A stretch of DNA of 40,781 nt from a virus (UHGV-0177491), one strand, 5' to 3'; positions 28,560-38,668 are shown, counted from the stretch's first letter. A program made the numbers and translations. The notes: generated from the letters alone by a model not told the origin.

Positions 28560-29009
28560 TTATTTCAGGCATTGCGTCCTGATGTATTCCTGCAGGTAGT
28601 TAACCTGCGCGGTTATCCTGTCGATTCCACTTCGGAGACGGTAATAATTGAGTTCAGCATCTGCTGTAAGTCTTGGGCTTTCTCCATCGCCCATGCCGCT
28701 GGCTCCGGTCGTTGACTTTGCACAGGTGGCGGCGACTTGCAGGCGCTTACGACCAGCAGAAACATCAGCACGGAGACTTTCGATAGTCGCATTAGCATCA
28801 GCAAGCTCCTTTGTGTATCTGGCGTCAAGTTCTGCTACATCACGTTGACGCTTCTGCATGTCAGCGATTGTGGATGCGGCCTTATCGCGCTGCTCTTTGT
28901 AGGCGATGGCGTTATCACGGTAATGATTGACCGCCCACGACAGGCAGACGATGATGCAGATAACCAGAGCTGAGATAATCGCGGTTAACCTGCTCATTGC
29001 TGCCCCCAC
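28560..29009 (-). CDS. rz: Rz-like i-spanin
   Basis: 149 aa with N-terminal transmembrane segment and coiled coil; follows the endolysin; contains an embedded lipoprotein ORF. Confidence 0.8.
28613..28798 (-). CDS. rz1: Rz1-like o-spanin lipoprotein embedded in Rz
   Basis: Signal peptide with lipobox VVSAC followed by the Pro-rich segment [16 protein letters not shown], as in lambda Rz1. Confidence 0.7.
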
Positions 29010-29497
29010 AAACAGACTTCACGCTCAATCTCACGACGAGTCATCAGCCCTTTCCATTGCTTACCGCCAGCGTATGTCCAGCGCCGTAGCTGATCACATG
29101 CGCCTTTGATATCGCCCTGGTTTATTTTGCGAAGAAGAGTCGATGTTCTGAAATTACCTGCACCCACGTTGTAGACGAACGAGTAAAGAGCGCCGCGCGT
29201 TGTTTCCGGTATATCGACTTTGATGTACGGGTTAATTTGTCTGGCGACCGTGGCGAGGTCTTTATTCAGGAGGGCTTTGCATTCTGCTTCGGTATACGTT
29301 TTACCGAGCATGATGTCTTTTCCGGTGTGTCCGTGACATACGGTCCATACACCAACAATATCTTTGTATGGTATGTAGCTGACACCTTCCAGACCATCGT
29401 TACCACTCGGTCCAGTGATTAACACAGATGCTATAGCAATAGCCCCGCCACTTATCGCCGCTATTACGCTATTTCGTAGTGTCGGTGACATTGCCAT
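28994..29497 (-). CDS. SAR endolysin (T4-lysozyme-like muramidase with signal-arrest-release N-terminus)
   Basis: Weakly hydrophobic Gly/Ala-rich N-terminus [21 protein letters not shown] followed by a lysozyme-like domain with catalytic E/D/T spacing. Confidence 0.8.
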
Positions 29498-29672
29498 TCA
29501 ATCTATCCTCGCGCTCTTTGCGCTTGTAGTACCAGTTGATGCCAAATGTGCCAACAGTGCAAAGAATACCAATGATGACAGCCCAGTCATTCAGGGAGAA
29601 AACGCCACCCATCGCAGTCAGCCCTCCGAAGCTGTAACTGAACCACTCTCTGATTTTGTTAATACGGTACAT
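29469..29672 (-). CDS. Holin, probably pinholin type
   Basis: 67 aa, two transmembrane segments, charged C-terminus; immediately upstream of a SAR endolysin. Confidence 0.6.
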
Positions 29673-29974: not shown

Positions 29975-30057
29975 ATAAAAAAAGCCACCGTTGCAACTTA
30001 AGAGTCACTAACGGCAGCTTATGCGAATAGTGTTGCTCATTTGCTCAATGATGTCAA
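29975..30057 (-). promoter_or_regulatory. Putative late promoter with downstream intrinsic terminator (PR-prime/tR-prime analog)
   Basis: Minus-strand TTGACA at 30052-30057 just after the Q-like stop; about 50 nt downstream a hairpin followed by TTTTTTT (plus-strand A-run 29977-29983). Confidence 0.4.
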
Positions 30058-30063
30058 CACGTT

Positions 30064-30570
30064 TTATGCTACATGTTTAATTTTCTCTACACGTTTCCGG
30101 TTTTTAAACGCACTATCCAGAACCGGGTAAATCATAAACAACGAGGCATTAAGGATTTCGTCAACTTCCCGTCGACAGGTTGCGAGCGATGGTTTTTGAA
30201 TGCGCCCGCCGCCCCGGCATAACATCTTGCGAGGTCTTGCGACGCGATGATAGTAAGATGCAATGGCGTGTTTGGAAGATCCATGAGCGTAGTAGCTGAG
30301 GAGGATGCCAAAGGCTTTCTTGTCAATGTACATGACGGAATCGACGACCTGAGAAATCAACATTCCATCATCATCATTACACATTGGCCTTGTCATAACC
30401 CTTCCCGGCTCTACGCTCTCCATGAGCTTCGCTATTACGCTGCTCATGCGCTTTTCCAGACGACCTGAATAAACCCATGCGCCCCACAGTTCAAGCCATC
30501 CATTCAGCCACTCATGCTGATCTTTTGTGAGGTTTAGTTCTCTTATGCTCATTCCATATGCCTCCATCAT
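30064..30570 (-). CDS. Q-like late-gene antiterminator
   Basis: Assigned by position (last early gene, immediately upstream of the promoter/terminator pair and lysis cassette) and size. Alternative start at 30552 with a GGAGG SD. Confidence 0.5.
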   Translation of the reverse strand: MMEAYGMSIRELNLTKDQHEWLNGWLELWGAWVYSGRLEKRMSSVIAKLMESVEPGRVMTRPMCNDDDGMLISQVVDSVMYIDKKAFGILLSYYAHGSSKHAIASYYHRVARPRKMLCRGGGRIQKPSLATCRREVDEILNASLFMIYPVLDSAFKNRKRVEKIKHVA

Positions 30571-30579
30571 TTTTGAATC

Positions 30580-30741
30580 TTAAGCGATTCTTCTCAAGCG
30601 AATTACGATTCTTGCGACACCCCACCATTCAGCATCAGACAACATCTCTGATGGTTTAAATGCGTCTGGGAATTGCTGTGGAATGTATCTGGTGAATTTA
30701 GTCTCTGTCCTCACAGGTGCTTTCTTCTTTCGCTTGCTCAT
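30580..30741 (-). CDS. Hypothetical small basic protein (53 aa)
   Basis: ATG at 30741 forms an ATGA overlap with the stop of the upstream antirepressor-like gene. Not in the ORF track. Confidence 0.35.
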   Translation of the reverse strand: MSKRKKKAPVRTETKFTRYIPQQFPDAFKPSEMLSDAEWWGVARIVIRLRRIA

Positions 30742-31427
30742 ATCAACCCCTCATCAGTCAGTTTGCCGACAATCCACATCTCCCCTTCGGCGTAGAACAT
30801 CGCCTGAGAGTGTCCATTATTAGTCTCGCGCATGATGCCGTAGCCTTTGTCGATAAACCATTGCTGGAAGACGCGCCCACGCTTAACTGAACGATTGTAT
30901 ACCCCTAATTGCTCAAGCTGTTTATTCAGCCACACGGCGGATTGCCCGAACTTCTGCGCCACCTGCGACGCGTTATAAAGATTGTTGCGCTCAACGATGC
31001 GGTCGTAAACCTCGGCTTTAGGACTCATTTCCTTGTTCTCCAGTGCAAGGCGCTCTTTCTCTTCCTCTGCTACCACCAGCGCCTTGAGCGCCTCAAGATA
31101 AGTTTGGGGGACAGGAAATGCCGGTTTACTTTCTTGTTCTTCCAGCTCTTGCCAGCGATTAATTATTTTCATACGCAGAGCAGCGCTGTACCCAGCTACA
31201 AGGCAGAGAGATTCTTCCTTGTTCAACAAGTAGACTTTATCTTTGACGGCATGCCCTAAGTTATTAATTCTCTCGACAAATCCAATTTTGGATTGCTCAG
31301 AGATTCCTAACTCTGACAACATAACTCTTATATCTCTGCACACATGCCCATGCTGTTTACCTGTCAGTTCCGCAATCTCACGGCTGGACATGGTTTGCAC
31401 TTCTGCAGCGTTAATTAAACTGCTCAT
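30738..31427 (-). CDS. Antirepressor-like protein, paralog of 2541..3212
   Basis: N-terminal MSSREIAELTGKQHGHVCRDI motif; C-terminal about 95 aa nearly identical to the plus-strand paralog. ATG at 31427 with a purine-rich SD (track ORF extends to 31472). Confidence 0.7.
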   Translation of the reverse strand: MSSLINAAEVQTMSSREIAELTGKQHGHVCRDIRVMLSELGISEQSKIGFVERINNLGHAVKDKVYLLNKEESLCLVAGYSAALRMKIINRWQELEEQESKPAFPVPQTYLEALKALVVAEEEKERLALENKEMSPKAEVYDRIVERNNLYNASQVAQKFGQSAVWLNKQLEQLGVYNRSVKRGRVFQQWFIDKGYGIMRETNNGHSQAMFYAEGEMWIVGKLTDEGLI

Positions 31428-31505
31428 ACATTCCTCTCTCTTGTTGGTGTAACTGTATTTAACTTCCAACATTCATATCGTTCAAATCAGGTTCTTTATC
31501 GTCAC

Positions 31506-31534
31506 GATAAAAAGCCCCTTTCGGGGCCTTTTCT
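31506..31534. terminator. Bidirectional intrinsic terminator within the nin/Q region
   Basis: GCCCC-tttc-GGGGC flanked by an A-run and a T-run. Confidence 0.55.
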
Positions 31535-31587
31535 TACTCATCGATTTACTCATGTTGGCGAATGAAATTTAGCTATGCTTTCGAGTC

Positions 31588-31776
31588 TCATCGTCTTCCT
31601 CTCTTGCCCTGTTTGACCATCAGGACGCCGTTAACTATTACGTGACGCTCACCTTTGCTGTCTCGGTTGTACTTGAGCACTGTTCCTCTTGCACAGGAAA
31701 GCATCCTTGCCACTTCGGTCTGATTGCCTCGTGTCTGGATAAGAAGCTCTGGTATCGTTTGAATTGTGGCGTTCAT
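31588..31776 (-). CDS. ninH: NinH-like protein
   Basis: TIPELLIQTRGNQTEVARMLSCARGTVLKYNRD...VIVNGVLMV matches lambda NinH as recalled. Confidence 0.8.
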   Translation of the reverse strand: MNATIQTIPELLIQTRGNQTEVARMLSCARGTVLKYNRDSKGERHVIVNGVLMVKQGKRGRR

Positions 31777-32135
31777 ACGTTCTCCAGTTCGGTGATTTTT
31801 ATTCCAAGCCTTCCGCCTGGCACTTTCACACCACGAATTACGCGAATGTCATCGAATTGCTCGTCGTCTTCCGCAAATCCGGCGTGGACAAGGGAGTCGA
31901 GCAAACATTTCAGGATATTGTCGAGATCGCGGCGACGTGAGTCCGGAGTGTCTGCGATTATTTTGATGCGGAGTCGTGATTTGGTGAAAATATCTAACTT
32001 GAGTTGGCGGATTATTTGCTGTACATCTTTTCGGTATTTCTGGCCTTTATCGCTGATGTAGTATTGGCTTCCCCGTCTTCGCCAGTAGGTGTTCAGCGAC
32101 GGCGGATATGGAAGCACAAACTGATATTCGTTCAT
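31773..32135 (-). CDS. rusA: RusA-type Holliday junction resolvase
   Basis: 120 aa; motifs PPSLNTYWR and DTPDSRRRDLDNILKCLLDSL match RusA as recalled. Confidence 0.9.
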   Translation of the reverse strand: MNEYQFVLPYPPSLNTYWRRRGSQYYISDKGQKYRKDVQQIIRQLKLDIFTKSRLRIKIIADTPDSRRRDLDNILKCLLDSLVHAGFAEDDEQFDDIRVIRGVKVPGGRLGIKITELENV

Positions 32136-32422
32136 GACTTAATCTTCCCCTCCCTCAGCAGTATCGCCTGCGTCCTGATCACGCCTTCGAGGTGGTAAAG
32201 TCTGGCGTCTTTGTTGTCGAGATTATGGGTGCGTCGGTCGATCTCCGCGTGGCAGTCACTACAAGCCCATGCACCGATCAGGTCGTCAGGCTTCATTCCC
32301 GTTCCGCAAATTCCAGCCATCCGGTAATGTGCCAGAACTGTAGTTTCAGGATTACCATTGCATACGCCGTAAATACGTACCTGGCATTCTCTGCCGCGTG
32401 CTTCTTTGCGTAGGTTAGCCAT
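32132..32422 (-). CDS. DUF1364-family (YbcO-like) protein
   Basis: Cys/His-rich 96-aa protein immediately upstream of rusA, as in the DLP12 ybcO-rusA arrangement. Confidence 0.6.
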   Translation of the reverse strand: MANLRKEARGRECQVRIYGVCNGNPETTVLAHYRMAGICGTGMKPDDLIGAWACSDCHAEIDRRTHNLDNKDARLYHLEGVIRTQAILLREGKIKS

Positions 32423-33192
32423 TAAGCAGCCTCCCCTGTTACTTTCAGCATTCCGTTATCGAGCAGCTTTCTGGTCAGCCACTGTTGACCACGCCCGGTG
32501 ATTTTTGTGGTGAACGATATCTGTATTCCGTGATTTGTGTTGACCGCTGTTTCTTTCACTGTGAAATAGCCGCGCTCCATATATTCCTGCATTGGCACAT
32601 TGCGCCGGGAACCTGAAGCAATAAGGATTTTGTGATCACGCATCCACGCAAACAGTTTGTTTGGACCAGTACCGACAACCTTTGCAAAGTTTCCAATCAA
32701 AATTCCGCTGGCCTCGCCAACGCGATCGGCAAACTCAACTTTAGGTGCTGCGAGAGCAAGCTGCTGTTCCAACTTCACCTTCTGCTCATACTCATTAGCC
32801 CATGCTCTGGCAGCCTCTGCCGGGTTGGAGAAGTCAGGCAGTTGTAATTGCTGGCTCACTTTGTTGCGGAAATAGTTCCTCACCAACTCTCGCTGTACGC
32901 GCCACGCTGTCTCATCACGTAGTGTCTTTACCAGCATCAGATAGCCGGATTCTGTGAAAACCCTTAAGCCATTTGGTGAAATTTTCATCGACGGGTAGGC
33001 CGTCTGTTGCGTAAAATCAATAAGATACGTATCTTCTCCGTCTATAAAATATTTCGCGTTTCTCGCATAACCATCTTTGATAGTGGTTACTGGAACCCCG
33101 TGAATATCAGCAATCATTTGATACGTAACAACACGCTCACCATTAAACTCAATCGGCACGATTTCTGCGTTGGCAATAATTACGGCATTCAT
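32422..33192 (-). CDS. Antirepressor-like protein (ORF6N N-terminal domain plus Ant-like C-terminal region)
   Basis: N-terminal EFNGERVVTYQMIADIHGV...GLRVFTESGYLMLVK (ORF6N-like); central PDFSNPAEAARAWANEYEQK shared with the 2541..3212 protein. Confidence 0.65.
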   Translation of the reverse strand: MNAVIIANAEIVPIEFNGERVVTYQMIADIHGVPVTTIKDGYARNAKYFIDGEDTYLIDFTQQTAYPSMKISPNGLRVFTESGYLMLVKTLRDETAWRVQRELVRNYFRNKVSQQLQLPDFSNPAEAARAWANEYEQKVKLEQQLALAAPKVEFADRVGEASGILIGNFAKVVGTGPNKLFAWMRDHKILIASGSRRNVPMQEYMERGYFTVKETAVNTNHGIQISFTTKITGRGQQWLTRKLLDNGMLKVTGEAA

Positions 33193-33443
33193 GCAACACC
33201 TCCTTCAACGACAATACTGTCTCGCTTACCTTGTTCGCCTTCGAAGACGTAGAAATCACGCTTCCCGGTAATAACACCTAAATCATTGATTATGTTAGTG
33301 TGCTGCAATGCAGGAGGCTTGATAACGCCACGTTTCACCAATCTATCTATGGATACTTTTACATTGCTATGGCGGCTTTCTACCAGTTCGGCAATTTCGA
33401 TACTGGTCATCTTAACGGAAGAGAAACAAATTAAATTACTCAT
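33189..33443 (-). CDS. Small Rha-type N-terminal-domain protein
   Basis: MTSIEIAELVESRHSNVKVSI motif; ATGA-coupled to its neighbours. Confidence 0.45.
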   Translation of the reverse strand: MSNLICFSSVKMTSIEIAELVESRHSNVKVSIDRLVKRGVIKPPALQHTNIINDLGVITGKRDFYVFEGEQGKRDSIVVEGGVA

Positions 33444-33474
33444 TGCTATTCTCCGGTTTGCAAATTGTATTCAC

Positions 33475-33942
33475 TTAAACGCGAATGCGCACAAACTTAC
33501 AACCTAACGCCGATTTTATCTCTTCCTCGCGAATGCGATCCGCGTCCATATGCTGAGGCGCAAAATGTTGTTCCTCGTCTATTTCATAGGCGATATTGTT
33601 TACAGGATCATAGCCATCTATGCGGTATTTATCTAAAACCGGATATTGCCTTATTAATTTAACTCCTTGTAATTGTTCGATGGTGGTTAATGCTATTGTC
33701 TCAGCACATCTATTTAATGCTATTCTCTGATGCTTAAACACGTTAGCAACATCAGCATCAACAACAAAAACCTCTCGCTTAACTTTGAATCCTAGATTAT
33801 TTTCATAATATTCATATTTAATATCGTGCTTTATCCCGTTTTTTATTATGGTACGTTTCACATTGTCATGACGCTTACCCACCAACTCAGCGATTTCAAT
33901 GCTTGTCATTTTGATGGCATTGCCATTTATTAACTCATTCAT
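33475..33942 (-). CDS. Rha-type DNA-binding domain fused to a putative Vsr/DUF559-like endonuclease domain
   Basis: N-terminal MTSIEIAELVGKRHDNVKR; C-terminal AYEIDEEQHF...DADRIREEEIKSALGCKFVRIRV resembles a PD-(D/E)xK Vsr-like nuclease signature. Confidence 0.45.
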   Translation of the reverse strand: MNELINGNAIKMTSIEIAELVGKRHDNVKRTIIKNGIKHDIKYEYYENNLGFKVKREVFVVDADVANVFKHQRIALNRCAETIALTTIEQLQGVKLIRQYPVLDKYRIDGYDPVNNIAYEIDEEQHFAPQHMDADRIREEEIKSALGCKFVRIRV

Positions 33943-34105
33943 CGTCTTCTTCCTCGTACATTGAGCTATTCGGATCGCTCATCAGTTCTGCGCAGCAATC
34001 GGAGCACACGTGAACTTCCAGCACATGCAGTTTCTGACCGCAGTTAGCGCACGTTAAAGCCCGCTCGACGCTTTCTTGTTCGTAACTTCGATTTGGGTCA
34101 ATCAC
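33939..34105 (-). CDS. Small zinc-ribbon protein (NinD/NinF-like)
   Basis: About 55 aa with CANCGQK...CSDCC; GTG start overlapping the NinE stop; its stop overlaps the next ATG. Confidence 0.35.
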
Positions 34106-34284
34106 CTTGTTTTCCTCGCACGTTCTCTAAGCCACCGGATATCCCACAGGTGAGCCGTGTAGTTGAAGGTTTTTACGTCAGATTCTTTTGGGATTGGCTT
34201 GGGTTTATTTCTGGAGCGTTTCGTTGGAAGGTATTTGCAGTTTTCGCAGATTATGTCGGTGATACTTCGTCGCTGTCGTCTCAT
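34102..34284 (-). CDS. ninE: NinE-like protein
   Basis: 60 aa, [20 protein letters not shown]..., recalled as NinE-like; ATGA overlap with the NinC stop. Confidence 0.55.
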
Positions 34285-35126
34285 GCCGCATCCTCAAAAT
34301 TAAATCCAAGCTGACATGAAAATGCTTCACATGATTCAGAACACGAACCTGAATCATACTGTCGCATTGATGTCATTCTTGAGGCTAACTCATCTCTTGA
34401 TATATCACTAAACAAGGCAATCAGTGATTTAAGTGTATTATTCCCTCGATACATAACCGGTTCCTTTCCTGTTTTTATTTCTGTATCAAGGATGTTGATA
34501 AATGCATCTGCAAGTTCTGGCTCATCCATGGCTGCCAGCGCAACCTTTTGCATACTTTTTTTTATACAGAAAACACAATTACCAAGATGCTCCTGTATGC
34601 CAAGATCAAACTTCTGCCCACTCCACCAATCAAGCACATCCTGTTTTTCAAAATCGCTTATATCAGCCAGGTACCGAAAACCATTAGCCCTTTTAAGTCT
34701 GTTTGGTTCATCTGTGCGAATGCCAAGCCATGTGATGTAATTTCCTTTCCCAAACTTTTCCTGACAATATTTGGTGAATGGAACAGACTTCATTCTGTCG
34801 GTACAGAACGCACCGCCGATATATGGATGTCCGTATTTATTCAACATCCTTTTCCACGGTATAAGATCTGGACCAATATCATTGACACCTATCTCTTCAT
34901 AACTACTGGCCTTCCCCATTTCTGGATTAGGTATTACACGAAGGCAATGTAAGTCTATTTTCCAGTTACTGACGATATTTCGGATGAACTCATATGTTTT
35001 AGGGTGCTCTGCCCCTGTATCCATGAAAACGTAATGCACGTCTTCACCTGCCTGTCGCTTTTGCTCCATTAGCCAGAGCAAATATGCTGACGTCCTGCCA
35101 CCTGAGAAACTAACGACATTTATCAT
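34281..35126 (-). CDS. ninC: NinC-like protein (PAPS reductase / PP-loop family)
   Basis: [12 protein letters not shown]-loop motif near the N-terminus; position after ninB as in lambda. ATG at 35126 overlaps the NinB stop. Confidence 0.75.
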
Positions 35127-35569
35127 GCAGCCCTCCCTTTTCGTTGTGACCATTCATACTCTCGCCTGGAGTCATCACTCCACCGCACGTTGCGCTCTGA
35201 GCCGAACCAGAACATGATTTCGATAAGCTCAGTCATGCTGACCTTTCGCATTTTGCTGGTACGCACGCCAAGCATGACAACGCCACCGTCGATACCAGGA
35301 ACGCTTCGTTGCTCCAGTTTTTTGGTCTTAAGCCACAGGGCAGTGAACAGATCTTTCCAGTCCTCCGGCGCAAGTCTCTTTCCATGCCAAAGCACCTGAC
35401 GTGATACGTCCTGCAATAACGCCCACATAAGTCGGTTTTGAGGATTGCTCCGCTTTGGTTCTTTAACGTGGACTTCGTGAGGTGACTTGTCGTCGATGGG
35501 AAGTGAGAGTATTGCGTCTATGGCGTTATTTCTGATTGCTTCGTTGCGAAGCATGTATATTTGCCTCAC
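35123..35569 (-). CDS. ninB: NinB-like recombination protein
   Basis: NPQNRLMWALLQDVSRQVLWHG...WSDDSRREYEW matches lambda NinB as recalled; AAGGAGG SD 7 nt before GTG at 35569. Confidence 0.9.
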   Translation of the reverse strand: MRQIYMLRNEAIRNNAIDAILSLPIDDKSPHEVHVKEPKRSNPQNRLMWALLQDVSRQVLWHGKRLAPEDWKDLFTALWLKTKKLEQRSVPGIDGGVVMLGVRTSKMRKVSMTELIEIMFWFGSERNVRWSDDSRREYEWSQRKGRAA

Positions 35570-35700
35570 CCTTAAACCTCCTTAATCGCATTCTGACGAG
35601 ATTTTGCATCTAGACACCCGATTACATACCTGCTGTGTGTTTATCTCGCTACAGGCTCATCTAGGCGCCTTAAAATCGATTTTTGTTGTTTTGGTTGTGT

Positions 35701-35731
35701 GCAAACAAAAGGCCTGCGATTACCAGCAGGC
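35701..35731 (-). terminator. Intrinsic terminator after the primase-helicase gene
   Basis: Minus-strand hairpin GCCTGC-tggtaatc-GCAGGC followed by TTTTGTTTG. Confidence 0.5.
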
Positions 35732-35761
35732 TGTTATTAGCTCAGTGATATAGATGGTCAT

Positions 35762-38668
35762 TTAATACTCCGTCACGTTTTCCTGTCGCCACGCCTCGTC
35801 ATATTCCGATTTCGGCATATTGGCGATGTAGCTATATGGCGATCCTGATTCAAGTTGCAGGAACTGGTGCGATTGCTCGTCAAGGAACAACGAGACACCA
35901 CCTTCCCAACCTTCGCCGTTACGTTGTTTTTCAAGCATCAAAACAGATGCCGGAGATGCCAGTAGCTGTTCGTCCTTCTCTGTCATCTTTTCACCACTCT
36001 GAACTCTCTGTAACGCTCTCTCGCGAGCCTTGTTACGCCAGATGATGAAAAGGTTGTCTGTCAGGTCTGTTATCGCGCCAGAGCCTTTTACGTCCATTTT
36101 CCCGGTTGGTTTTTCTTCGCTGTCTCCTTTTCGCGAGTGAGTAACGAGAATGACGTGGGAGTTTGTTTTGTTTTTGAAGTCGCAAATCGAGTCAACAAAC
36201 GCCTTCTGCCCGTTATAGTCATCGTCACCTATGCCGCATTTCATCAGGCTGTCGATGATGAATAACTGGATGCCGTATCGGCGGCGAGCGTAGTCGAATA
36301 TTTCGATCAGCCTGTCGGCTTTCGCCGTTCCGGTCAGGCCAAACACCCAAAGTCTTTCGTCATAAAATTTAAATGCAGAGTCAATTTCCAGCACTGGCGG
36401 CATCTTGCAGCACGTCGCCTGACGGGTAAGGCGCTTAAGGAGAATACCAGGCTTCAGCTCAAGTGACGCGATGCACGTCTTCACACCCTGACGCATTGCC
36501 TCAAGTGCCATATGCCCGACAACCTCGGTGTTATGCGTCGCCACATATCCCCTGGTTACATACAGGTGGCGAGGGTGATCGACCATAATACACAAGCATT
36601 CTGCATTGCCTATTTTTTCAACATTCCTGACGAATACCCCACAGCCCTCGAATCGATGCGCAGTTAATCTGCCATTGAGTCGTGGTGAACGGATGGCATC
36701 CCTGATTTCTCTTGTCAGTCTGATTCTTGCCTCGTATGAATCCATCCCATGCCGCTTATCGCCCTTGTATGTGTATGTCACGCCAGTTTTAACTCGCGTC
36801 CGGCATGACCCGCCGAGTGAGTTAACCAGTTGAACAACCCCATTGAGCAGTTCTTCACTTGCTGAGGAAAAAACAAGCGTTCCATCCTTCTCGACATACC
36901 CATCCGTTTCAAGCAGACCACACAGCATGCCTATACGCGTTGATTTATTTGCAGAAAAAAACACACGAGGGATGAATTTGTTTTTTGCTGTGCACCCCAT
37001 TAGTCCATAACCTCGCAGGGTCTCCATGAGTGGATTTACCTGACCACGCGCCGTTGATATCAGCCAGTCCTTACCATCTCCAGAGAAGTTGTAATCAGGC
37101 AGTTCAGCCTTCATACGCTCGATCATGTATGGCTCGACGTTTGAAAACTTCACGCTCCCATTGCTAAGACTACCATCCCCGAGAAGGGAGCCGATAACCC
37201 ATGCTAATGGCTCTGAGTGGTCGCCAAAGTCACCAGTTATTTCAGGAATCCTAACGCCATTTTTGTGCCTCTTCGTTTCACTCAACCGTTTCAGCTCGAA
37301 GGTGTCTATCACGCGGCGCTTCTCGCCTTTCGTGAATCCACGACTAGTGACCTCCCATAGGTGATCGCCTGCGCAATCAACATAACGACCATCTTCAAAT
37401 GTGACTCGGTAAACATCTCTAACACCCTGCGGGAATATCCCGGTGACAGTTGACGGATTGCCGTCAACTGACGCCACCTGATCGCCAATTTTTACATCCC
37501 CGTGAGTAGTCCATTCACCATTAGCGAGCAGAATTGGTTCATCAAGTGGACAGGCTTTTCCGTGACCGTTCACACCATTGACCAGCGTCAACTCGGCCTC
37601 ACGGAACTGGAATTTATCTGCCAGAGATTCCCACGGTGGATTAAACAGATACTGCTGCTTGCCGTAGAAAGCGTTGATAGTGTCCTGGTAAAACTCTCGC
37701 GCGCTGTAGAGTTCTTCAGGATCGAAGTAGGATGCCGTGCCGATGTACTGCCAGATTTCATCCTCGGTAACACCGTTCATCAGGCATTCGTTGATGTCTT
37801 TGTACGGCAGAGTAACAAGACGGCAACGATGTTCACCGAGTCGGCTTGCGATTTCCCTTGCGGCTTCACGACCAACATCATCAACGTCCATCGAGATGAA
37901 TATTTCCTCAAACCTGTCGAGGTTGTGATACTCAAACTCAATCCACTGTTGCTTAGCGCCTTTCCCGCCACCAAACGGCACGGATAACGCCGAGATGCCG
38001 TATTGCGCATAGCTCATACAATCAATTTCGCCTTCGCAAAGTACAACCGCCCTCACGCCAGCGTCCAGAGCCTGCCATCCGAACAGACAAGGTTCGCAAT
38101 CACCTTCTGCCATAATGACTTTCTTCCCGTCCGGGCGCTCAGTGCTGATTCGCTTGACCTGCAACAACTCACCATCGCGTTTGTACGGAAGCACCAGTGC
38201 ATCAAGTTCTCGTTCTCCATCCCACACCTTGCCGCTGACAACCTCGTAGCGCTTTACGACTTCTGGCGATATGCCACGCGATTGCAGGTACTCAAGATGG
38301 GATTCTGTTCTGGTAACGTAGCGGGCGATTTTCTTGCGGTCAGGTCTGGAGAATTTCTTCTCACGTTTGGCATCGAAATGGTGATCGTCATCCTTGATTC
38401 CGAGAAATGCTTTCGCTTCCTGCATAGCCTGATGCAGGTTAATTCCACGACATGCCATCCACAAATCAAGCATGTCACCGCCGTCTCCCTCAGCGAAATC
38501 AGCCCATTTTTTCTTGCCGCTAAGGTTGACCTTAAGGCTGTTTCCCTTGTCACCGTTGACGTTACCGGCAACCCACTCATGCCCCTCTTTCTTGCCGTTT
38601 GGCAACAGGTGCGGAGCCACCCTGTCAACCTGCGCCCAAAGCAGGTCGCTGAGTTCACTTGGCCTCAT
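35762..38668 (-). CDS. Primase-helicase (Toprim primase domain plus DnaB/SF4-like helicase domain) carrying an intein
   Basis: Toprim motif VVLCEGEIDCMSY; helicase motifs GVNGHGK (Walker A), LFIIDSL, VTHSRK, KGSGAITDLTDNLFIIWR. A 341-aa insertion interrupts the Walker A. Confidence 0.85.
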   Translation of the reverse strand: MRPSELSDLLWAQVDRVAPHLLPNGKKEGHEWVAGNVNGDKGNSLKVNLSGKKKWADFAEGDGGDMLDLWMACRGINLHQAMQEAKAFLGIKDDDHHFDAKREKKFSRPDRKKIARYVTRTESHLEYLQSRGISPEVVKRYEVVSGKVWDGERELDALVLPYKRDGELLQVKRISTERPDGKKVIMAEGDCEPCLFGWQALDAGVRAVVLCEGEIDCMSYAQYGISALSVPFGGGKGAKQQWIEFEYHNLDRFEEIFISMDVDDVGREAAREIASRLGEHRCRLVTLPYKDINECLMNGVTEDEIWQYIGTASYFDPEELYSAREFYQDTINAFYGKQQYLFNPPWESLADKFQFREAELTLVNGVNGHGKACPLDEPILLANGEWTTHGDVKIGDQVASVDGNPSTVTGIFPQGVRDVYRVTFEDGRYVDCAGDHLWEVTSRGFTKGEKRRVIDTFELKRLSETKRHKNGVRIPEITGDFGDHSEPLAWVIGSLLGDGSLSNGSVKFSNVEPYMIERMKAELPDYNFSGDGKDWLISTARGQVNPLMETLRGYGLMGCTAKNKFIPRVFFSANKSTRIGMLCGLLETDGYVEKDGTLVFSSASEELLNGVVQLVNSLGGSCRTRVKTGVTYTYKGDKRHGMDSYEARIRLTREIRDAIRSPRLNGRLTAHRFEGCGVFVRNVEKIGNAECLCIMVDHPRHLYVTRGYVATHNTEVVGHMALEAMRQGVKTCIASLELKPGILLKRLTRQATCCKMPPVLEIDSAFKFYDERLWVFGLTGTAKADRLIEIFDYARRRYGIQLFIIDSLMKCGIGDDDYNGQKAFVDSICDFKNKTNSHVILVTHSRKGDSEEKPTGKMDVKGSGAITDLTDNLFIIWRNKARERALQRVQSGEKMTEKDEQLLASPASVLMLEKQRNGEGWEGGVSLFLDEQSHQFLQLESGSPYSYIANMPKSEYDEAWRQENVTEY
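36530..37552 (-). mobile_element. Intein with LAGLIDADG homing-endonuclease domain inserted in the helicase P-loop
   Basis: Insertion begins with Cys after GVNGHGKA, contains LAWVIGSLLGDGS and RIGMLCGLLETDGYV (two LAGLIDADG-type motifs), ends VATHN followed by Thr. Residues about 373-713 of the host protein. Confidence 0.7.

Follow-up and report, generated by a model that had tools for sequence, protein, structure and literature searches.

What to make of a run of genes joined by overlapping stop and start codons is the question raised by positions 30,580 to 35,569 of the viral sequence UHGV-0177491, a stretch of 40,781 nucleotides (nt) that is referred to throughout as 'the window'. In this part of the window, identified here as a phage nin region, the end of one open reading frame (ORF) repeatedly coincides with the beginning of the next, most often in the tetranucleotide ATGA. 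An original prediction had named five such junctions, had taken them as support for the short ORFs being real, and had proposed that the genes are translated in a coupled manner. Three matters therefore need to be separated: whether the overlaps exceed chance, what they imply for translation, and whether they can by themselves establish that a short ORF is a gene.

Overlapping junctions from NinB to Q

Thirteen co-directional genes, joined by 12 junctions, run from NinB to the late-gene antiterminator Q, in the order of transcription NinB, NinC-like, NinE, NinF, orf155, orf84, orf256, YbcO, RusA, NinH, Ant, orf53 and Q (Table 1). Overlaps occur at nine of these 12 junctions. In seven the shared sequence is 4 nt long (ATGA in six, GTGA in the remaining one); of the other two, one shares 1 nt (TAATG) and one 8 nt (ATGAATGA). 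All five gene pairs singled out in the original prediction do overlap, on the minus strand, although not every one of them by ATGA, with NinE/NinF reading GTGA; at the junction between NinF and the ORF at 33475..33942 (orf155), for which overlapping stop and start codons had been claimed, the genes share 8 nt but the two codons have no base in common. The description of a chain running through the nin region was itself correct, but its list of links omitted four overlaps that lie inside the same range (orf84/orf256, orf256/YbcO, YbcO/RusA and RusA/NinH). The chain is interrupted three times within 30064..35569, by spacers of 31 nt (orf155/orf84), 160 nt (NinH/Ant, with a hairpin inside) and 27 nt (orf53/Q, or 9 nt if counted from the first ATG).

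The overlap pattern exceeds chance. Each strand of 30000..35800 was searched for ORFs of at least 45 amino acids (aa) whose stop codon overlaps an ATG or GTG that opens at least 45 further codons. The minus strand yields eight four-base [A/G]TGA overlaps (seven of them true junctions, the eighth a spurious pair within orf256), as compared with none on the plus strand under the same rule and with an average of 0.29 over 500 dinucleotide-preserving shuffles, none of which gave more than 3. Overlaps of 4 nt ('-4' junctions) are also more common in nin than elsewhere in the window (7/12 versus 6/41 junctions; Fisher p = 0.005, on a hand-curated ORF map in which the non-nin genes were not individually verified).

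The region is a mosaic that no single genome in the searched collections, whether phage or E. coli, spans in full; the best coverage by one record is 42% (phage) or 57% (E. coli). Relatives were consequently compared module by module, with the modules being 92-97% identical to HK97, HK022, CUS-3, HK620 and many prophages. Set against HK97, CUS-3 and lambda, the junction strings show almost no differences; the shared strings include those at NinE/NinF (...gcgaggaaaacaagGTGAttgacc), at NinF and the gene that follows it (...gaggaagaagacgATGaaTGAgttaat) and at roi/YbcO (...ggggaggctgctTAATGgctaac). At NinE/NinF the string of HK97 is identical and that of lambda departs at four positions only, further upstream of the GTGA. 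The same chain is visible in the annotated coordinates of all three phages. The phenomenon is already known, having been described in 1982 for lambda and as a general feature of the lambdoid group: ATGA junctions are reported to be typical of nin in every lambdoid phage, and lambda ninR is 'a chain of interlinked genes' in part of the account by Kröger & Hobom (1982, Gene 20:25). Beyond annotation its significance here is small, the feature being an ordinary one that was correctly read.

A further similarity extends across genes that are unrelated to one another. Four upstream genes in the window end in similar strings, GCTGCATGA (35123..35131), GCGGCATGA (34281..34289), GTTGCATGA (33189..33197) and GCTGCTTAA (32422..32430), and their proteins end in AA or VA before the stop, as do those of HK97 NinB and methyltransferase and of lambda NinB, NinC and NinG; lambda NinI ends in ...GGCGCATGA, its protein in GA. 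To judge from their sequences, these similar gene endings look like a shared junction 'linker'.

Probable coupled translation and competing explanations

Coupled translation is the most likely behaviour at the nin overlaps, and the calculations and comparisons described below make it a fairly probable one. A ribosome ending the upstream gene would remain on the mRNA and re-initiate at the adjacent start, helped by a Shine-Dalgarno (SD) sequence encoded in the last codons of that upstream gene; such coupling would also keep ribosomes on a long transcript that must reach Q. Each of the overlapped starts has its own SD inside the upstream gene, with a computed anti-SD duplex of -5.9 to -13.0 kcal/mol, as compared with a mean of -2.5 kcal/mol over the other 218 ATG and GTG codons in the region, 6% of which reach -6. 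The nin overlaps use exactly three spacings (-4 as [A/G]TGA, -1 as TAATG, and -8), and these same spacings are enriched in prokaryotes (PMC12548453). Reporter assays elsewhere have found 13 of 14 natural overlapping gene pairs to be strictly coupled (Huber et al. 2019, PMC6728339). The junctions have very probably come down with little change from the genes that lambdoid phages share, with the chain broken only where extra modules (orf155; the hairpin, Ant and orf53) have been added.

Several points weigh against this reading. The opening energies around the starts (1.7-10.6 kcal/mol), which were computed to test an 'RNA unfolding' model of coupling, reveal no consistent blocking of the starts of the kind that would make a downstream gene depend on translation of the one before it. 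The SD at each downstream start could also allow ribosomes to load independently. The nin proteins are not known to form stoichiometric complexes, the usual rationale for coupling. Finally, an ATGA and its SD can outlast a functional gene downstream of them, as is the case for a relic of Q that follows NinH.

Independent translation is the core of one alternative, in which compaction of the genome gives rise to the overlaps incidentally, helped by the ease with which a -4 junction evolves, the start codon supplying three of its four bases. The SD found at every overlapped start is in keeping with this, as is the late-gene block of the window, which is also tightly packed (gaps of 0-3 nt, and -1 overlaps) with -4 junctions occurring less often; a review has ascribed the abundance of -4 overlaps to just such ease of evolution (PMC12548453). 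Such an origin is nevertheless unlikely, given the roughly fourfold enrichment of -4 junctions in nin over the rest of the window, the strict coupling of nearly all the natural pairs assayed by reporter (PMC6728339), and the conservation of the junctions, nearly base for base, in lambda, HK97 and CUS-3, including places at which the neighbouring genes are not the same. That conservation has a possible explanation of its own, in which the junction strings (SD plus GCNGC-ATGA and similar) are kept mainly as homologous 'linkers' for the exchange of modules, through recombination and not through selection on translation. Breakpoints relative to HK97, CUS-3 and lambda do lie only a few bases away from junctions (34289 near the NinE start, 34284; 33940 near the end of NinF), the non-homologous NinB, HK97 methyltransferase and lambda NinC all end in ...GCTGC-ATGA, and 'boundary sequences' are annotated beside Q in the CUS-3 record. 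Several other breakpoints, however, fall in the interior of genes (at 31555, which belongs to the Q relic, and in the N-domain of roi), and the proposal, which is on balance rather doubtful, would explain the conservation of junction sequences but not the origin of the -4 geometry.

It may also be asked what coupling would be for. Its main selected function could be protection against polarity, whereby ribosome cover over some 5 kb of dispensable genes stops Rho from terminating transcription before the essential Q, with coupling as the means to that end. The unit ends with Q, and Cheng et al. are said to have described, in 1995, Rho-dependent terminators in lambda nin. The nin genes of lambda are nonessential, and blocks within nin are polar on Q; in the same phage, however, N-type antitermination already suppresses Rho on the transcript (PMC10695390), and protection based on translation may be redundant. 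As the chief function this can be entertained tentatively, as something short of an even prospect. Translational coupling, protection against polarity and recombinational linkers are not mutually exclusive, and coupling is retained as the favoured reading of the nin overlaps.

Breaks in the chain and the standing of the short ORFs

As read from the alignments, all three gaps fall at insertion or recombination scars, at places where the window has modules additional to those of HK97, CUS-3 or sibling contigs. In orf155, the first 32 codons of HK97 roi are joined to a weak DUF559/MTES_1575-like (PD-(D/E)xK-like) nuclease domain. This ORF is absent from two related metagenomic contigs (L007 and L009), in which an 84-aa ORF stands directly after NinF with the same ATGAATGA overlap; the corresponding orf84 of the window follows the 31-nt spacer, and its new 5' end has diverged; gene calls include this ORF in 8 of the 10 related contigs shown. 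The architecture of orf155 (Rha-N plus DUF559-like) is that of a widespread family with 516 relatives, whose nuclease module can also follow an N-domain of the Bro-N or AntA type; the relatives suggest a modular, possibly mobile endonuclease family that is currently annotated as 'Rha family regulator'. A sequence search of solved structures in the Protein Data Bank (PDB) returned no match for orf155. A one-off fusion with a 66-bp target duplication was considered as its origin and rejected, the two copies having diverged and the architecture being widespread; recombination within homologous N-terminal segments appears to fit better.

The adjoining orf84 and orf256 correspond to HK97 roi split by an ORF6N-domain cassette, the N-domain being kept as the 84-aa ORF and the KilAC C-domain fused to ORF6N, such that HK97 Roi aligns with the C-terminal half of orf256. 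The cassette supplies its own AAGGAGGT and ATG, and thereby created the ATGA found at orf84/orf256. At the far end of the chain, homology to lambda and HK97 stops at 31555, beyond which lie the hairpin, Ant, orf53 and a CUS-3-type Q. Just before that point, an ATGA at the NinH stop, with a good SD, opens 13 codons (MRLESIAKFHSPT and a stop) that represent the 5' end of a lambda/HK97-type Q; the functional Q further downstream is of the CUS-3 type. Another related contig (L006) carries four extra genes at the NinH/Q junction, which appears to be a hot spot for the insertion of cargo.

The existence of this relic determines how much weight an overlap can bear. The original prediction was right that the short ORFs are real, and the small nin ORFs are indeed genes by homology, but its argument from overlaps holds only in part: an ATGA by itself proves nothing, and even an ATGA with a good SD is insufficient evidence for calling a gene, because one such opens only the 13 codons of the Q relic. 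This is a caution for annotation generally. Among the short ORFs, NinE, NinF and NinH match curated Pfam families, and lambda NinH is a characterised Fis-like DNA-binding protein that is expressed together with other ninR genes (PMC7166090).

The case of orf53 is less direct. It has no match in Pfam or NCBIfam, a tblastn search of the phage collection gave no homologue, and a word-indexed search returned only orf53 itself. An exhaustive HMMER search of 1.8 billion representatives found one true relative (P0003) in addition to lysine-rich, low-complexity matches. That relative, of 56 aa, is 44% identical to orf53 from end to end and is the counterpart of gp57 in Seuratvirus phages, CAjan among them (~95% identical to P0003), where the gene follows a dUTPase gene across a 7-nt gap, with no overlap. 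It is this conservation of protein in an unrelated context, and not the ATGA, from which orf53 can be said to code. The orf53 relatives comprise one distant family only, in virulent Seuratvirus phages. The identical orf53 protein occurs on 18 contigs, and in L006 the Ant upstream of it has a different N-terminal domain, with the ATGA link to orf53 kept. The hairpin, Ant and ATGA-linked orf53 between NinH and Q could conceivably form a small regulatory cassette, in which orf53, as a factor not characterised before, would partner or modulate either Ant or the activation of late genes that depends on Q, but this is quite improbable. In a further contig (L013, 2552..3386), the orf53-Q-lysis module runs on into a TrkH gene, from which it follows that this type of phage is found as a chromosomally integrated prophage of bacteria as well.

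Attention to the junctions also fixes several starts: NinC at 35126, NinF at its GTG, Ant at 31427 and Q at 30552. The NinB/NinC overlap requires that NinC begin at the tenth codon of the ORF as it had been listed (MINVV...), a start that is backed by the identical lambda junction string gctgcATGAtaaatg, by an alignment to phrog_33262 from residue 1, and by a PGAP call of a 281-aa NinC-like protein (PAPS reductase family) in E. coli S51. For Ant, the ATG with an SD lies at 31427, 15 codons after the beginning of the listed ORF (31472), and gene callers also give 229 aa. The listed ORF of Q is six codons too long (30552..30570, minus strand); its seventh codon, the ATG at 30552, matches the CUS-3 Q (MSIRELNLTK), has GGAGG 8 nt upstream and agrees with gene calls of 162 aa. 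A two-codon mini-ORF (ATGGAATGA) overlaps this Q start in the manner of an ATGA.

Layout of the region and its likeness to known systems

The segment at 30064..35569 very probably represents canonical ninR, the delayed-early region of a P22-like lambdoid phage. It sits between a toprim/helicase replication gene upstream (38668..35762) and Q downstream (30552..30064), with every gene between 30064 and 38668 carried on the minus strand. Families were assigned with Pfam and PHROGs, and junctions were read straight from the sequence. Matches were obtained to the Pfam families NinB, PAPS-reductase (NinC), NinE, NinF, YbcO, RusA, NinH and antiterminator Q; NinB, NinE, NinF and NinH exceed the curated Pfam cut-offs, and PAPS_reduct (NinC-like), YbcO and RusA are present as well. 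Neither a failure of the named families to match nor a difference in strand among the genes was found.

Table 1. Genes, junctions and other features of the nin region, in window coordinates
Feature	Position	Strand	Particulars
NinB	35123..35569	-	148 aa, GTG start, heads the chain; Pfam NinB E 6e-48; AAGGAGG 6 nt upstream of GTG
NinC-like PAPS-reductase-family protein	34281..35126	-	281 aa from ATGA start; Pfam PAPS_reduct E 1.8e-8; phrog_33262 E 4e-112
NinE	34102..34284	-	60 aa; Pfam NinE E 2e-43; DNA ~95-97% identical to lambda, HK97, CUS-3
NinF ('zinc ribbon' of the original prediction)	33935..34105	-	56 aa, GTG start; Pfam NinF E 7.6e-14; phrog_672 E 5e-36
orf155	33475..33942	-	Roi/Rha-like N-terminus fused to DUF559-like nuclease domain; weak Pfam matches Rha, DUF559, MTES_1575
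orf84	33189..33443	-	Roi N-terminal domain as its own ORF, by alignment to HK97 Roi
orf256	32422..33192	-	Antirepressor-like, ORF6N plus KilAC domain of Roi; Pfam ANT E 6e-33, ORF6N E 8e-11
YbcO/DUF1364 (NinX-type) putative nuclease	32132..32422	-	96 aa; Pfam YbcO E 2e-43
RusA Holliday-junction resolvase	31773..32135	-	120 aa; Pfam RusA E 4e-16
NinH	31588..31776	-	62 aa; Pfam Phage_NinH E 2e-24
Q relic	31550..31591	-	ATGA at NinH stop
Ant-type antirepressor	30738..31427	-	229 aa; Pfam Rha E 4e-15, ANT E 4e-10
orf53	30580..30741	-	Small basic protein, function unknown; phrog_17117 E 4.5e-11
Antiterminator Q	30064..30552	-	162 aa; Pfam Phage_antitermQ E 1.5e-23; ends the delayed-early chain
NinB/NinC junction	35123..35126	-	ATGA, -4; identical to lambda
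NinC/NinE junction	34281..34284	-	ATGA, -4
NinE/NinF junction	34102..34105	-	GTGA, -4; GTG start as in lambda and HK97
NinF/orf155 junction	33935..33942	-	ATGAATGA, -8; identical to NinF/roi of HK97, CUS-3
orf84/orf256 junction	33189..33192	-	ATGA, -4; AAGGAGGT upstream
orf256/YbcO junction	32420..32424	-	TAATG, -1; identical in HK97, CUS-3
YbcO/RusA junction	32132..32135	-	ATGA, -4
RusA/NinH junction	31773..31776	-	ATGA, -4
Ant/orf53 junction	30738..30741	-	ATGA, -4
Terminator-like hairpin upstream of NinB	35712..35731	-	In 192-nt spacer between toprim/helicase gene and NinB
GC-rich hairpin in NinH-Ant gap	31514..31527	.	T-runs in both orientations; reported on plus strand by hairpin search

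The 192-nt spacer upstream of NinB is held in common with the ren-NinB segment of lambda, 35707..35761 being 94.6% identical to lambda locus 1968..2023. The name 'nin' goes back to transcription terminators whose removal makes a phage independent of N. Terminator-like hairpins are seen at 35731..35712 and 31514..31527, and the second of them reads GCCCCGAAAGGGGC and then TTTTTAT on the minus strand. The 968-aa toprim/helicase (AAA_25) replication protein (35762..38668, minus strand) carries an intein-like insert between its primase and helicase parts, with Pfam Hint at residues 379-424 and a LAGLIDADG homing-endonuclease domain at 576-631. Downstream of Q lies a lysis cassette (28994..29672, minus strand) that consists of a 67-aa class II holin (Pfam Phage_holin_2_3, as matched in sibling contigs), a 167-aa lysozyme whose hydrophobic N-terminus looks to be of the signal-anchor-release type, and an Rz-like spanin; an ATGA also occurs at the lysozyme/Rz junction (28994..28997). 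The structural genes elsewhere in the window resemble those of a P22-like phage, as judged by ORF sizes alone.

The nin pairs resemble established termination-reinitiation pairs (PMC6728339, PMC12548453) in being co-directional, in their -4, -1 and -8 spacings, and in having an SD inside the upstream gene; they differ in that coupling was measured on those other pairs, whereas for the nin pairs it is a prediction. With lambda ninR, the window shares a position between the replication genes and Q, the NinB, NinC, NinE, NinF and NinH families, and the ATGA and GTGA junctions (7 of the 11 O-to-Q junctions of lambda are -4). The NinD, NinG (Rap) and NinI of lambda are absent from the window, which in turn has YbcO/NinX, RusA, Roi-derived ORFs, the extra Ant and orf53 module, and another type of Q.

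There is a likeness to HK97, HK022 and CUS-3 (HK620-like) as well: two segments, NinE with NinF, and the C-terminal half of roi onward through YbcO and RusA to NinH, are shared at ~95% DNA identity, with junction strings that match exactly or to within one or two bases, among them the -8 overlap ATGAATGA and the -1 overlap TAATG. In HK97 and CUS-3 all 11 of the P-to-Q junctions overlap; the three gaps in the window correspond, relative to those phages, to the insertion of orf155, the splitting of roi into orf84 and orf256, and the insertion of the hairpin, Ant and orf53 between NinH and a Q that is itself of the CUS-3 type, at 84% DNA identity.

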